From: Escherichia coli
GTDB taxonomy: Bacteria; Pseudomonadota; Gammaproteobacteria; Enterobacterales; Enterobacteriaceae
Assembly (NCBI RefSeq): GCF_001677475.2
Contig: NZ_CP015229.1
Length of the DNA: 64,000 bases
Direction: 5' to 3' (one strand)
A program made the position numbers and the translations under genes. Shown one piece after another: positions 56,915 through 64,000 of this stretch (the first letter of the stretch is position 1; every line of letters starts with the position of its first letter). The notes beneath the pieces were generated by a model. The model saw nothing but the letters and a program-made list of their open reading frames with translations. It was not told where the DNA came from and did no database searches.

Positions 56915-57829
56915 TTATTCATAGATAAAAGTGACACCAATGACTGACTGGACGGTTCCGGCTGAAACTTTGTTTCCTGTTTGTCCATAGGTTGCGCTTA
57001 AACCCAGAGGTACTTTGCTTTTATTTACTGTCCCCAGGGAGACGTTTTCTCCCGTAGCCAGTATTTTTCCATTACGCATCAGAGAGACACCCACTCCCGA
57101 TGCTTTTGTTGCATCTGGTGCTGTGTTAGCAAACACTTGTCGGGCACTGTCAGTGGTGGCACCCGAAAGATAAAATGAGAGCTTTTGTTCACTTGAGCAA
57201 TATACGCCAAGTGGTATTTCTGCGCTTCCAGGAAAGTCCGGGAGATTCACGTTGACATTACGACTATCAACGGTGCAGCCGCCTGTTGGCATAACAACAC
57301 TGTTATTTGAAATAATATTCCACGTAAAATTACGCGGATTTCCGCTTCCTAACGTGGCAATTTTATACATATGAATACGGGCAATAACTTCCCCGGCTTT
57401 TATGACAACTCCACCGGCCGCACCGACTGGGGTAATATAGAGTTTTAACGGTAATGGCATCGGTGTCTTATCACCAATATCTAATACATTAGTATTTGTC
57501 GTCAACGGGAAGGGGTAGGTCACACTATTCCAGTACAGCGATCCTTTATATGACTGTAGGGAGCCTGCGAAAGCTGAGCCTTGTACCAGGTTTATATGAT
57601 CAGTATCGTACCAGCCGCCGTAATCATTCCAGCAACTTATATGCTGAGACAAGTCTACAACCAGATTCTGTCCCGGTTGTATTACAGGGTCGAGATTAAC
57701 ATAAACAGAGGTTGTACCTGCTCCAATACTTGCCCCGCCATCGACATTACAACTGAAGGCAAAAACTTTGCCTGCCATTAATAGAAGATAAATACCGAAC
57801 AGGACCTTTATACTGATTGTTTTACCCAT
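56915..57829 (-). CDS. ydeQ: fimbrial tip adhesin, FimH-like two-domain protein (F9/Fml adhesin type)
   Basis: ORF trimmed to ATG 57829 ([32 protein letters not shown]...), 304 aa; signal peptide then lectin-like domain plus pilin domain. Confidence 0.85.
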
Positions 57830-57889
57830 GATATATCCTAAGGTTAAAAAATTGATTAAAAAAGGAGGCAAAAAAAAATCGAATCGACG

Positions 57890-58393
57890 TTATTGCCAGG
57901 TGTAGATCACATTGATTAGCGCCTCGATCGTTCCCTGGCTTGCGTTTCCATTCACCGTGATAGCTCTTGCCTTAAGTGGAAACTGTGCATTACGAGTGAT
58001 CTCATCAACAATAACCGTTTTGCTATCGCCATTTTTTAACGTCGCATCCTGGTCATCCCTTAGCTCTATCTGAATATTTTCGGCAGTACCTTCATTTTTG
58101 TAATAACCCGTATTGTCAGTTGAACCTGTCACGATTGCCGTCACTGCACTTGTTTCAACCGGACAATCGGTTAATGACAAAGTAATATTGTGCCAGCCTG
58201 ATGCAGAACCAGGTTGTTGCAGATTGCGCGTATAAAGATCCCCGAGATTAACGTTAGCTTCTTTGGTTTGAATAGTGCAGGGTTTAGCGACTACCCGACC
58301 ATTAACAGTGATAGTGACATCGGCGGCCTGGAGAGTTGCTGTGAATAACGCGCAAAACGTAGCTAACAGGAACCTCTTGTGAAGTCTTTTCAT
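57890..58393 (-). CDS. ydeR: fimbrial minor subunit (FimG-like)
   Basis: 167 aa with signal peptide; pilin-fold sequence. Confidence 0.85.
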   Translation of the reverse strand: MKRLHKRFLLATFCALFTATLQAADVTITVNGRVVAKPCTIQTKEANVNLGDLYTRNLQQPGSASGWHNITLSLTDCPVETSAVTAIVTGSTDNTGYYKNEGTAENIQIELRDDQDATLKNGDSKTVIVDEITRNAQFPLKARAITVNGNASQGTIEALINVIYTWQ

Positions 58394-58405
58394 ATCTGAC
58401 TCTGA

Positions 58406-58936
58406 TTATTGAAATTCAAGGGTAAAGGTTGCCGAAGCCCTCACCAGTCCCGGATTGACGGAATTCTGCGTTGACTTCAAACGAGCGGAATAAGGCAAAA
58501 TATTGTTCTGTTCTGGTACCAGTGGGATCCACTGCATCCCGGCATGAAGGTCATTCAATTTCACCGGACGCATATTTCCGTCCAGTATTTCTATACCCAA
58601 ACCGGAGGCCGTATTGCTTCCTTCATCCAGTTTCAACAGAGTATTATTTTCTGCATCCTCAATCCCGTTAAATGCAACCCGAACCCCCGTTGTTCCTTTA
58701 CTGCATTCACTTAACGTAATCTGAAAAGGGACGGCTGGACCTGTGCTACCGGTCGTTGGAAATTGTCTGGCACTGTTTTTTTGGAGATCTACGGTAAAAT
58801 TAAGCGAATCCGATGAGACTGTGCAGCCATAATCGAGGACGCGCCCGCTAATTTTAATAACGCTATCTGCGGATAAAGCAGAATAGGTGGTTAACCCCAG
58901 ACATAAACCGAGGAAAATAATGTTATTGTATTTCAT
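58406..58936 (-). CDS. ydeS: fimbrial minor subunit (FimF-like)
   Basis: 176 aa with signal peptide. Confidence 0.85.
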   Translation of the reverse strand: MKYNNIIFLGLCLGLTTYSALSADSVIKISGRVLDYGCTVSSDSLNFTVDLQKNSARQFPTTGSTGPAVPFQITLSECSKGTTGVRVAFNGIEDAENNTLLKLDEGSNTASGLGIEILDGNMRPVKLNDLHAGMQWIPLVPEQNNILPYSARLKSTQNSVNPGLVRASATFTLEFQ

Positions 58937-58949
58937 AATCTATTGTTCC

Positions 58950-61601: not shown

Positions 61602-61642
61602 TATTAATTCCGATTGAGTTTATTATTAATTAGGTCACTGGC

Positions 61643-62353
61643 TTACTGCATGGTTGCCTTAATACGCGGAGTTAATGCACCGTAATCATTGATCGTCTGA
61701 AAACTGATGTCCCCGGTTGCAGCATGCGGGATATCCACCGATACTTCACCTTTTGGCGGCACCATGGTGTTTGGGAGATTGCTATTTCCTGCTTTCATAT
61801 TTGTTACGGTAATGAAGTAGGGCGTTGGATTAATAAGAGTGAGTTTGCTACCGCTGCGACGAAACCGAAGCATTGCAGGCGCTTCTTCAGGTGCCATTGC
61901 CAGGTTCGTGGGGCGATAAAACATTTTTATGCGGCTAATAATTGCCAGCTGTAATGTATTCTCATTCTTCTGGTCTTTTTCCATAGCAGGAATAGCTTTA
62001 ACATTAACCCAGAACAGGCTTTCACGGTCGCCTGGTAACTGATGATTAGTGGCGTTGATTATCCGCAGCGTATTCTCTTTTTTACCTTGCATGGAAAAAA
62101 GCGGTGGGGTAATGACAAACTGGGTGTCTTTTTGGTCACCTGCATTTTCTATCCATGACTGAATGAGATAGACACTGGCAGGATCATTATTCGTGACAGG
62201 CAATAAAACCTGTTTCTGGTTTGCCGGATAAATTACCCGCGTCGCACCCAGTGCGACAGCTGCGTTGGCAACGGTGCTATGGCAAGCAAAGAGCAATAAA
62301 AGTAACACTGTCGCCATAAAGGAAATAGAGTAGGGGGTACGCGTAGTTTGCAT
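61643..62353 (-). CDS. periplasmic fimbrial chaperone (FimC/PapD-like)
   Basis: ORF 61643..62362; start set at ATG 62353 (MQTTRTPYSISFMATVLLLLLFA...) because a GGAGA RBS lies about 9 nt upstream. Core ALGATRVIYP...NTLQLAIISRIK... matches FimC closely. Confidence 0.85.
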   Translation of the reverse strand: MQTTRTPYSISFMATVLLLLLFACHSTVANAAVALGATRVIYPANQKQVLLPVTNNDPASVYLIQSWIENAGDQKDTQFVITPPLFSMQGKKENTLRIINATNHQLPGDRESLFWVNVKAIPAMEKDQKNENTLQLAIISRIKMFYRPTNLAMAPEEAPAMLRFRRSGSKLTLINPTPYFITVTNMKAGNSNLPNTMVPPKGEVSVDIPHAATGDISFQTINDYGALTPRIKATMQ

Positions 62354-62714
62354 CTGATGCATTCTCCATGTGTTAAGAGGATAAGCGGGGAAACCGTTAC
62401 ATCAGACAATCGGTAAATGTTGCTAATACATTGGCGACTCGCTGGGTTTCCATACTTAATGCGTTTGTAATAAATGTTGGTTCTCTTTTAATAGGAAAAC
62501 CTTGCTACAAAGTAAATTTTTTAAATAACAGTAAATTTAACTACTGTTGTTTATTGATCGTTTAGATATTATGTGATTTTTCATAGTGCTCCCAAATAAA
62601 AACCATTTCTCATTAAAAATGAGATGAACATTGGTGAGTTGCTCGGGTGTGCGTAGCCATGCCACACACACCCTGTTTCAATTTCAGATGACGTATAGCC
62701 ACCTTAAGATTGAA

Positions 62715-63278
62715 TTATAGATATTGAACTTTGAAGGTCGCATCTGCGTTTGCAGTACCAGCTACTGACTGCCCGAGAGCAATATAACGAGCCTGGAATG
62801 GCAGTATATTCGTGCCATCAATCAAGTCAGTTTTAGCGCTAAAAGTGGTACCATCAAGTATTAATACCTCCCCCGTACGGTCCAAAATTTGAATACCAAC
62901 ATTTTGGGCAGAGCCTGCCGCTGAACTCTGCAGCGCTAACGTGTCGTCATTACTGGTGACAGTAGTACCCAGGAATGCAACAGCTGCATTACTGGAAACA
63001 TTGGTATCACAATCATTCAGCTTGATATTGAAGCCAACGGCGGAGCTGAGGTCACCCGCTTTAGCCAGACGAGAAGAACGGACCTGACCCAGCTCAACCG
63101 TTTGGTTCATTGATTCTGAATCAATCGCACAAGCGGCATTTACCACTTCACCTTTAAAATGAATAACACCGCCATTAACAGTGGTCGTTACTGATTCATC
63201 ACCCTCGGCTGCGCTTACCGCAGCAGACGACATCGCCAACACAGAAACGACAATCATACCGACATGTTTGAGTTTCAT
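62715..63278 (-). CDS. major fimbrial subunit (FimA-like)
   Basis: ORF trimmed to ATG 63278 ([23 protein letters not shown] signal peptide), GGAGA RBS; 187 aa ending ...FKVQYL. Confidence 0.85.
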
Positions 63279-63711
63279 AATTCTCCAAAATCTATATTTA
63301 AGTAGCTGAATAAAGAGAGTTAACAATTAAGTCATTCTGTTATTGCTTATAAAACAAGAATCATTCTTGATTGGTTGTTGCCCTGAGAATATAGTTTCCA
63401 GGGTTATTACATTTCACGAAGAACGATAATATCTTTAAATCACAAGGACACCTAATCACAACAAGTTTATTGCTGCACTTGTTGGAGAGAGTATTTGCAA
63501 AAACATTTTATGGCGCTAAATAACATGACGATTTCATTATGCATGTTATTTATAAACCGTGACTAAACAGAATATTATTGCGGACAAGGGAAGTGTCAGG
63601 AAAGGTCAAGAGATACTAATGGTTTATATGGCTATAAATCATTAGTTATGGTTAATGTTTGCCTGGTGTAACTAACACGGAATTGCTCTAAACAGATAAG
63701 TGCAGGGTTTA

Positions 63712-64000
63712 TTAAAGCTGACCGACAGACTTTCTTAACCTGGTAATATCTCTCTTAGGTGACTCTCCAAACATCCGCGAATATTCCCGACTGAAATGGG
63801 ATAAGCTTTCGTAACCGACAGCATAGGCTGCAGTGGTGACATCGTAATGTTCATTCAGCATCGGTCGCCTGGCTTCATTGAGGCGTAGCCATTTCTGATA
63901 CCGGAGTGGACTCATTCCCGCAAGCTGTCTGAAGTGTTGATGGAAAGAGGGGGGTTCATTTGCACGCGGTTTGCCAGCCTGACTCTTCAACGCAGGGAAG
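63712..64000 (-). CDS. AraC-family regulator, C-terminal HTH portion (runs off the window end)
   Basis: Minus-strand frame open to the window edge; C-terminal ...FRQLAGMSPLRYQKWLRLNEARR...AVGYESLSHFSREYSRMFGESP is the AraC/XylS HTH signature. Confidence 0.7.
   Translation of the reverse strand, partial: FPALKSQAGKPRANEPPSFHQHFRQLAGMSPLRYQKWLRLNEARRPMLNEHYDVTTAAYAVGYESLSHFSREYSRMFGESPKRDITRLRKSVGQL

Follow-up and report, generated by a model that had tools for sequence, protein, structure and literature searches.

F9 fimbriae, also designated Fml, are chaperone-usher pili implicated in chronic colonisation of the urinary tract and kidney, in colonisation of the calf gut by O157 and O26 strains, in biofilm formation at low temperature, and in binding to plants. 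Their tip adhesin, FmlH, offers a route to F9/Fml as a drug and vaccine target. In CFT073, H-NS represses the operon, whose expression and function have been demonstrated at 20 °C, the pili bind Galβ1-3GlcNAc, and the intact form of F9 has been reported at a frequency of 60% (PMC3966885). Earlier publications cover how F9 is organised, how prevalent it is, its control by H-NS and low temperature, and the glycans it binds, and a complete operon is an ordinary finding.

The DNA analysed here is a stretch of 64,000 nucleotides from Escherichia coli (the window), and it very probably includes the chromosomal F9 operon (Fml; ydeQRST locus) in its complete six-gene form. The ORF list and comparison with RefSeq reveal six intact, co-directional genes on the minus strand at 56915-63278, which encode a major subunit, a chaperone, an 883-aa usher, two minor subunits, and a two-domain adhesin. 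This gene content and order match the published description of F9 (PMC3966885). There are no internal stops in any of the six ORFs, and the six proteins align without gaps and at equal length with the annotated proteins of VCSW5 and APEC O1, with 97-100% amino acid identity. Matches of the operon proteins to family models have E values from 1e-50 to 2e-295, which are far beyond chance. The sequence-only reading had proposed an F9/Fml-type operon with all six genes intact and co-directional, and both proposals hold up. The alignment to F9/Fml counterparts that it recommended exposes neither a frameshift nor a stop, and none of the other fimbrial types is closer.

The fmlA gene (62715-63278, minus strand) encodes a major pilin of 187 aa that scores 172 bits against the NCBIfam model for FimA-type major subunits and is identical to the VCSW5 protein at 187 of 188 aligned positions (stop included). 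A GGAG sequence is located 7 nt 5ˊ of its ATG, and ribosome-binding sites are kept in the operon. Two minor pilins are encoded by fmlF (ydeS; 58406-58936, minus strand; an adaptor of 176 aa) and fmlG (ydeR; 57890-58393, minus strand; 167 aa), which match the NCBIfam FimF (238 bits) and FimG (257 bits) models, respectively. All three proteins have the signal peptide, disulfide pair (Cys50/Cys90 in FmlA, 38/78 in FmlF, and 39/77 in FmlG), and PF00419 domain of chaperone-usher pilins, with the domain of FmlA being recorded on an identical protein.

The assembly machinery is likewise complete. The fmlC gene (61643-62353, minus strand) encodes a PapD-like periplasmic chaperone of 236 aa that matches FimC in the PDB (E = 1e-88) and is 100% identical to the VCSW5 chaperone. 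Within GATRVIYP and ISRIKMFYRP it retains the Arg and Lys, respectively, that align with Arg8 and Lys112 of FimC, the pair that anchors subunit C-termini. PF00345 and PF02753 are found on the identical-length chaperone in loci that are 100% identical. The fmlD gene (58950-61601, minus strand) encodes a full-length outer-membrane usher of 883 aa, whose alignment with FimD (6E14_D; 1158 bits) spans residues 18-883. Its N-terminal, pore/plug, and C-terminal domains are all present (PapC_N, Usher, and PapC_C), and it is identical to the VCSW5 usher at 878 of 884 positions with no gaps.

The identity of the pilus is revealed most clearly by fmlH (ydeQ; 56915-57829, minus strand), which encodes a two-domain tip adhesin comprising a 24-aa signal peptide, a lectin domain of ~160 aa, and a pilin domain. 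We used the start consistent with RefSeq, which yields 304 aa; the ORF listed at 318 aa starts at an upstream TTG. The lectin domain is identical to that of crystallised FmlH (PDB 6AOW/5LNE) at 158 of 160 positions. The residues of the mature protein that contact galactoside, F1, Y46, D53, K132, N140, and R142 (PMC5866590), are all present. The only differences in this domain, S9A and N78S, are both located outside the binding loops 10-15, 44-53, and 132-142. This near-identity and the unchanged contact residues indicate an F9/Fml rather than a type 1 adhesin. Because the binding loops are identical, FmlH of the present strain would be expected to bind terminal Galβ1-3GalNAc or Galβ1-3GlcNAc.

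The genomic context is that of F9. The ydeP gene (54305-56584) is located directly downstream, an arrangement shared with K-12 and other E. coli, and hipBA is found on the 5ˊ side beyond the window edge in contigs that match the window at 100% identity over 7.3 kb. Comparison with K-12 also yields a precise account of what was lost there. Alignment by blastn of the window with the MG1655 locus (ydeQ-ydeR-ydeS-ydeTˊ-yneLˊ) gives two blocks, 56600-60176 (~98% DNA identity) and 63457-63921 (96%), which abut at one K-12 coordinate with microhomology of no more than 1 nt at the junction. The interval absent from K-12 (60177-63456; 3,280 bp) includes usher codons 1-475, the chaperone gene, fmlA, and most of the 5ˊ leader. 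K-12 cannot assemble the pilus because the chaperone, fmlA, and these usher codons are missing. The earlier statement that K-12 carries a truncated usher is accurate, since ydeT matches only the last 408 residues of FmlD and is a C-terminal usher fragment. The accompanying statement that neighbouring genes have decayed is only partly right. The chaperone and major subunit genes are absent, and ydeQ, ydeR, and ydeS are intact, full-length ORFs whose products share 98-99% protein identity with those of the window (174/177 for YdeS and 167/168 for YdeR). The K-12 state is one clean 3.28-kb deletion and not a row of decayed genes.

Upstream of the operon, a frame on the minus strand that is open to the window edge (63712-63999) carries an AraC-family remnant of the yneL type, a neighbour that lies outside the pilus system. 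The remnant shares 91% identity with residues 226-303 of a 304-aa AraC regulator encoded elsewhere in strain GF47, and this full-length relative adjoins metabolic genes in an island at tRNA-Arg. RefSeq labels the AraC piece in VCSW5, Z142-4, and K-12 as 'incomplete; missing N-terminus'. The gene had been described as partial, which is correct, but its state is not just the result of a cut at the window edge. Rather, it is a true C-terminal remnant of ~78 residues. In the 100%-identical contigs, hipA lies only ~245 bp past the window end. The possibility that it serves as an intact, dedicated fimbrial activator was rejected because it covers so little of its relative.

In contigs identical to the window, dif is located 142-169 bp past the window end and ~0.6 kb from the fml promoter. 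The stretch between dif and fmlA varies among lineages, carrying the AraC remnant in the window, an SDR gene in B2 strains, and extra metabolic genes in Z142-4. In one contig, the stretch carries a dif-flanked Microviridae-like prophage, and the operon of this contig matches that of the window at 100% identity. There is a slim chance that turnover by elements integrating at dif repeatedly remodels the F9 5ˊ control region and contributes to frequent operon loss or rewiring. If so, F9 status would be partly a by-product of terminus-region dynamics.

The f9/fml promoter (63529-63565, minus strand) was read from the sequence, and a consensus scan gives the same pair of elements: a −35 element TAGTCA (63565-63560), an 18-nt spacer, and a −10 element CATAAT (63541-63536), with a predicted transcription start at G63529, 251 nt before the fmlA ATG at 63278. 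The promoter of CFT073, mapped by 5ˊ-RACE, has a G start 251 nt upstream of the start codon, a −10 element CATAAT, a −35 element TAGTCG, and an 18-bp spacer (PMC3966885). The −10 element and spacer are therefore identical to those mapped, and the −35 element differs by one base (A for G). With 9 of 12 consensus positions and an 18-nt spacer, this promoter is weak. The scan overall yielded no excess of sites over shuffled sequence, so that the basis for assigning this promoter is its homology to the mapped site.

Between this start and the ATG is a long AT-rich 5ˊ leader (63279-63528, minus strand), whose composition suggests a likely H-NS target region. The regulatory interval 63279-63711 has a GC content of 32.8%, compared to 47.8% for the window. 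H-NS binds a 251-bp promoter fragment in CFT073 (PMC3966885), and by analogy the operon of the present strain might be repressed by H-NS at 37 °C and expressed at ~20 °C. The high-affinity H-NS motif TCGATAAATT has no match with two or fewer mismatches in 63279-63711. Two other forms of control were considered and rejected. A Pap-like Dam/Lrp switch relies on paired GATC sites, and there are none in 63279-63711. A Fim-like invertible switch is disfavoured by the inverted repeats in 63200-64000, which are only short, imperfect, or local, and by the lack of a recombinase ORF adjoining the operon.

RNA folding reveals a G+C-rich hairpin of 13 bp at 62645-62673 (minus strand), which is located 42 nt past the fmlA stop and is not followed by a T-run. 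The surrounding region (62600-62720) folds with −44.1 kcal/mol (z = −5.5). The hairpin stem does not vary across five E. coli lineages and consequently provides no covariation support for a function. By analogy with other pilus operons, the hairpin is a candidate attenuator or mRNA-stabilising stem. The sole candidate for an intrinsic terminator 3ˊ of fmlH (56864-56884) was rejected because it folds no better than shuffled sequences (z = 0.6). No Rfam families were found in the operon, and the fdnG SECIS is the single Rfam match in the window.

How the system might operate can be proposed from what is established about chaperone-usher assembly and from published studies of CFT073, UTI89, and O157:H7. 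Transcription would begin at G63529 from the weak sigma-70 promoter in its AT-rich surroundings, which H-NS would silence at 37 °C and release at ~20-28 °C. The hairpin 3ˊ of fmlA would probably raise the abundance of fmlA mRNA relative to the downstream mRNA. Pilus subunits would be exported by Sec and captured in the periplasm by FmlC via donor-strand complementation. The FmlD usher would then polymerise them by donor-strand exchange, beginning with FmlH at the tip and continuing with FmlG, FmlF, and many copies of FmlA. The lectin domain of FmlH would present a wide, shallow pocket for terminal β-galactosides such as Galβ1-3GalNAc and Galβ1-3GlcNAc.

A type 1 (Fim)-like, mannose-binding pilus might be considered in place of F9, given that three subunits exceed the cut-offs of the NCBIfam FimA, FimF, and FimG 'equivalog' models, that some RefSeq genomes label the genes fimA, fimF, and fimG, and that, among structures, FimH is the closest relative of the adhesin after FmlH. 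However, the adhesin matches FimH at only 139 of 282 positions, compared to 158 of 160 for FmlH, and the FimC and FimD models fall below their cut-offs. The mannose pocket, which we take to include Q133, N135, and D140 of FimH loop 3 with Y137 as the tyrosine gate, is not retained, as Q133, N135, Y137, D140, and F142 of FimH correspond to K132, A134, L136, N140, and R142. Moreover, the operon is located at the ydeP-hipA site rather than at fim, lacks fimB/fimE-type recombinase genes, and has no convincing inverted repeats around its promoter that could form an invertible element. Sequence comparison refutes this reading, which retains next to no likelihood. It is also very unlikely that S9A and N78S in FmlH, together with TAGTCA in place of TAGTCG in the −35 element, have shifted the receptor preference or the expression level of the F9 pilus in this lineage. 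A9 and S78 do depart from the crystallised protein and from K-12, VCSW5, and APEC O1, residue 9 is located next to loop 1, and TAGTCA is closer by one position to the TTGACA consensus. Yet both substitutions are conservative, loop 1 of FmlH is reported to have no role in binding (PMC5866590), every contact residue is unchanged, and TAGTCA is also found in L012 and L014.

Even as an F9 operon, the locus could be cryptic in the present lineage, either permanently silenced or unassembled, and heading for decay as in K-12 and others. At least 80% of the locus by DNA coverage is found in 3567 of 5426 complete E. coli genomes, or about two thirds. An uninterrupted copy is missing in about a third, and therefore selection to keep the operon is not universal. 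Every phylogroup A strain examined had a disrupted F9 locus, and F9 is undetectable at 37 °C in wild-type CFT073 (PMC3966885). The weak promoter and its AT-rich region point in the same direction. Against this, the promoter and start site are conserved, as are the ribosome-binding sites, and the six full-length ORFs have amino acid sequences that are almost fully conserved across lineages differing by 2-3% in DNA, which fits purifying selection. The operon of CFT073 also functions when expressed at 20 °C (PMC3966885). We consider a cryptic operon unlikely. A complete F9 operon that is presumably expressed and forms a functional, lectin-tipped pilus in the present strain is a reasonable prediction, consistent with published work on other strains.

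Given its complete copy and unchanged pocket, the strain is predicted to be capable of making the pilus and to be susceptible to galactoside inhibitors directed at FmlH. The RefSeq labels fimA, fimF, and fimG on F9 genes can mislead. Beyond correct annotation, the finding has little importance.

Among known systems, type 1 fimbriae (fimAICDFGH) belong to the same assembly class. The alignment of the window usher with FimD runs from end to end, the chaperone keeps the anchoring Arg and Lys in its alignment with FimC, and the adhesin shares the two-domain layout of FimH and is 49% identical to it. In contrast, type 1 operons include fimI, whereas the window lacks a fimI-like gene and has a 361-nt gap between fmlA and fmlC that holds no subunit ORF. 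The type 1 ligand is mannose, whereas a galactoside ligand is reported for F9 (PMC3966885, PMC5866590). The known F9/Fml loci (CFT073 c1931-c1936, UTI89 fml, and O157:H7 F9), of which ydeQRST is the K-12 remnant, correspond to the window in their six genes, their order, and their site beside ydeP. The window operon has no structural differences from known F9/Fml and is distinguished by S9A and N78S in the lectin domain, by the single base in the −35 element, and by a few lineage-specific substitutions in FmlF (G66 and N158) and the usher (G121 and S172).

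The F9/Fml chaperone-usher fimbrial (fml) operon lies on the minus strand at 56915-63278, where the ORF list of window positions 54000-64000 gives six co-directional ORFs whose start codons were set as in RefSeq orthologues. The major subunit gene fmlA (63278-62715; 187 aa) is followed by the chaperone gene fmlC (62353-61643; 236 aa), the usher gene fmlD (61601-58950; 883 aa), the minor subunit genes fmlF/ydeS (58936-58406; 176 aa) and fmlG/ydeR (58393-57890; 167 aa), and the adhesin gene fmlH/ydeQ (57829-56915; 304 aa), with intergenic gaps of 361, 41, 13, 12 and 60 nt in this order. 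The operon has a GC content of 44%, lower than that of the window (47.8%) and of the downstream gene ydeP (50%; 56584-54305). The upstream region of ydeP carries an inverted repeat, ATCCTACA-CC-TGTAAGAA (56825-56842, minus strand), that resembles the EvgA box (TTCYTACA N2 TGTARGAA). This likeness fits with ydeP being an EvgA-activated acid-resistance gene.

There are no internal stops in any of the six operon genes, and their proteins align without gaps, at equal length and with 97-100% identity, to the annotated proteins of strains VCSW5 and APEC O1:K1:H7 (phylogroup B2). In NCBIfam, the subunits match models of major and minor fimbrial subunits, the chaperone is FimC-like and the usher FimD-like. 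The Pfam domains PapC_N/Usher/PapC_C, PapD_N/PapD_C, Fimbrial and FimH_man-bind are precomputed assignments on identical or identical-length proteins encoded in loci that match the window DNA at 100% identity. Usher residues 18-883 align with the FimD structure, and the chaperone retains the Arg and Lys residues that hold subunit C-termini in FimC. The family assignments are unambiguous. Together with the stop-free ORFs and the equal-length alignments, they confirm in every particular the intact co-directional operon of six genes described by the sequence-only reading of this region.

The f9 start site mapped in CFT073 is a G that precedes the major-subunit ATG by 251 nt and follows a −10 element CATAAT and a −35 element TAGTCG with an 18-bp spacer; H-NS binds this promoter fragment, and the operon is repressed at 37 °C, whereas pili are expressed at 20 °C (Wurpel et al., PMC3966885). 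The window has G63529 at exactly this distance, 251 nt, from the fmlA ATG (63278). The −10 hexamer CATAAT (63541-63536, minus strand) is the same as that of CFT073, and 18 nt separate it from a −35 hexamer TAGTCA (63565-63560, minus strand), a one-base variant common to two other lineages. A perfect 11-nt inverted repeat (TAAATAACATG / CATGTTATTTA; 63517-63552), with arms 14 nt apart, encloses the −10 hexamer together with the transcription start, and has a mismatch in one arm in VCSW5. This repeat could be an operator or a chance occurrence in AT-rich DNA.

The regulatory interval (63279-63711) has a GC content of 32.8% and contains no GATC sites, so a Pap-type phase switch is not indicated. 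Likewise, there are no convincing inverted repeats flanking the fml promoter and no recombinase genes among the ORFs of 54000-64000, and hence a Fim-type switch is not indicated. Located 42 nt past the fmlA stop codon is a G+C-rich hairpin of 13 bp that lacks a T-run (62673-62645, minus strand). The surrounding 121 nt have a folding energy of −44.1 kcal/mol (z = −5.5). The stem does not vary among five lineages, and therefore the comparison can yield no covariation signal. As in other pilus operons, the hairpin may raise the ratio of major-subunit message. A terminator-like site after fmlH is no better than chance.

An AraC-like frame upstream of fmlA (63712-63999, minus strand) is open to the window edge. 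It corresponds to the last ~78 residues (226-303) of the 304-aa AraC-family regulator WP_000622442.1, with 91% identity. The piece in this position is marked incomplete by RefSeq in VCSW5, Z142-4 and K-12. A full-length copy of WP_000622442.1 is present in strain GF47, in an island at a tRNA-Arg gene, where its neighbours are a hydrolase gene and an alcohol dehydrogenase pseudogene. Where contigs match the window at 100% over 7,286 bp, the hipA stop codon comes only about 245 bp after the window end, and dif falls within that stretch. The frame is thus a remnant rather than a gene clipped by the window. The partial AraC-family gene noted earlier is indeed partial, but this is not due to truncation by the window edge. 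Nothing links the remnant to pilus control, and published work found no evidence of a link between the variable upstream regulators and f9 (Wurpel et al., PMC3966885).

In contigs that match the window at 100%, the stretch from the AraC remnant to hipA holds dif (GGTGCGCATAATGTATATTATGTTAAAT), the 28-bp chromosome dimer-resolution site (5110-5137 of draft contig L010, equivalent to 64142-64169). K-12, VCSW5 and one B2 strain have it at the same position. Because it falls just past the window end, the fml promoter is only ~0.6 kb away. The segment between dif and fmlA varies among lineages, and dif is not mentioned in PMC3966885. In draft assembly GCA_033692315.1 (contig L009, 535-5137), whose operon is 100% identical to that of the window, an insert of ~4.5 kb separates hipA from fmlA. 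It carries Microviridae-type genes (Phage_F capsid, Chlamy_scaf and REP_ORF2-G2P) and is flanked by a dif-like site with four mismatches and a near-perfect dif with one mismatch. This insert resembles a gokushovirus-type prophage that has integrated at dif. An improbable further reading builds on the nearness of dif and the variable segment beside it: turnover by elements integrating at dif would repeatedly remodel the 5′ control region of F9.

When window positions 56600-64000 were compared with the K-12 MG1655 locus by blastn, two blocks (56600-60176 and 63457-63921) were found to abut at a single K-12 coordinate, and K-12 therefore has one deletion of 3,280 bp. Microhomology at the junction is at most one base. 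Usher codons 1-475, the chaperone gene, fmlA and most of the 5′ leader are lost, leaving ydeT, which encodes only the 408 C-terminal residues of the usher and carries an annotation of a missing N-terminus. The statement that the K-12 usher is truncated was therefore right. Its neighbours, said to have decayed, are better described as deleted in the case of the chaperone gene and fmlA, but ydeQ, ydeR and ydeS are still full-length. K-12 keeps the mapped f9 promoter, which is fused directly to ydeT along with about 73 nt of leader (window 63457-63565; 7578-8041 of the MG1655 locus, L001), such that ydeT′, ydeS, ydeR and ydeQ may still be transcribed from this promoter.

In 3,567 of 5,426 complete E. 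coli genomes, a single place covers 80% or more of the 7.4-kb query, and K-12-like genomes cover 55% of it. This prevalence agrees with the published figures for f9, which are 60% among 42 genomes and 61-80% in strain collections; every phylogroup A strain in that work was disrupted (PMC3966885). Many public draft assemblies encode FmlH and FmlA proteins identical to those of the window. Across stretches of 7-25 kb, the nearest of the 5,426 complete genomes are no closer than about 98-98.6%, the closest being O145:H28-type strains and VCSW5; contigs with 100% identity occur in draft assemblies. The lineage of the window appears to have no finished genome in this collection. An IS21-family element (18005-20256, minus strand; IstA transposase, 18757-20256; IstB helper ATPase, 18005-18760) probably accounts for the ~10% of positions 1-25000 left uncovered by the nearest complete genomes, and probably for the many scattered matches per genome. 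Elsewhere, a SECIS_3 element (84 bits; 9065-9123, plus strand) at the junction of in-frame ORFs 8483-9070 and 9119-11530 marks the selenocysteine codon of fdnG, encoding formate dehydrogenase-N subunit alpha.

No part is missing from the operon, its catalytic and contact residues are conserved, and so is its promoter. Going by the way chaperone-usher systems are established to work, and by the literature on F9, the subunits would be exported by Sec and captured by FmlC via donor-strand complementation. Donor-strand exchange at FmlD would then polymerise them, with FmlH at the tip, followed by FmlG and FmlF and then the FmlA rod, and the tip would bind terminal beta-galactosides. H-NS would presumably silence the operon at 37 °C, with release at low temperature. 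The main rival explanation, a cryptic operon in this lineage, is weakened by the strong conservation of the proteins across lineages that differ by 2-3% in DNA. The F9/Fml interpretation is supported and the underlying observation is correct, with two refinements concerning the K-12 deletion and the AraC remnant. The organisation, distribution, regulation, structure and ligands of F9 are all published, and the finding is already known.

The NCBIfam 'equivalog' models FimA, FimF and FimG exceed their curated cut-offs on three F9 paralogues (57890-63278), and consequently the RefSeq gene names differ between genomes, some having fimA, fimF and fimG and others ydeS and ydeR (RefSeq loci L002 and L003). 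The fim labels on F9 genes are a naming artefact, reflecting systematic mis-naming. The proposed F9/Fml identity held when the adhesin was aligned with characterised proteins, as 158 of the first 160 residues of its mature form are the same in FmlH, the F9 adhesin of known crystal structure (PDB 6AOW, 5LNE). FmlH contacts galactose directly through F1, D53, K132 and N140, with flanking hot-spots Y46 and R142, and its binding loops span residues 10-15, 44-53 and 132-142 (PMC5866590). All six residues are kept in the window adhesin. The two differences, S9A and N78S, are outside the binding loops; residue 9 abuts loop 1, which is reported to make no contribution to binding in FmlH (PMC5866590). 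FimH, the next relative, is identical at only 139 of 282 positions, and its loop-3 pocket residues Q133, N135, Y137, D140 and F142 are replaced by K, A, L, N and R. The near-identity to FmlH, the retained contacts and the replaced FimH pocket indicate that this fimbria is of the F9/Fml type and not type 1.
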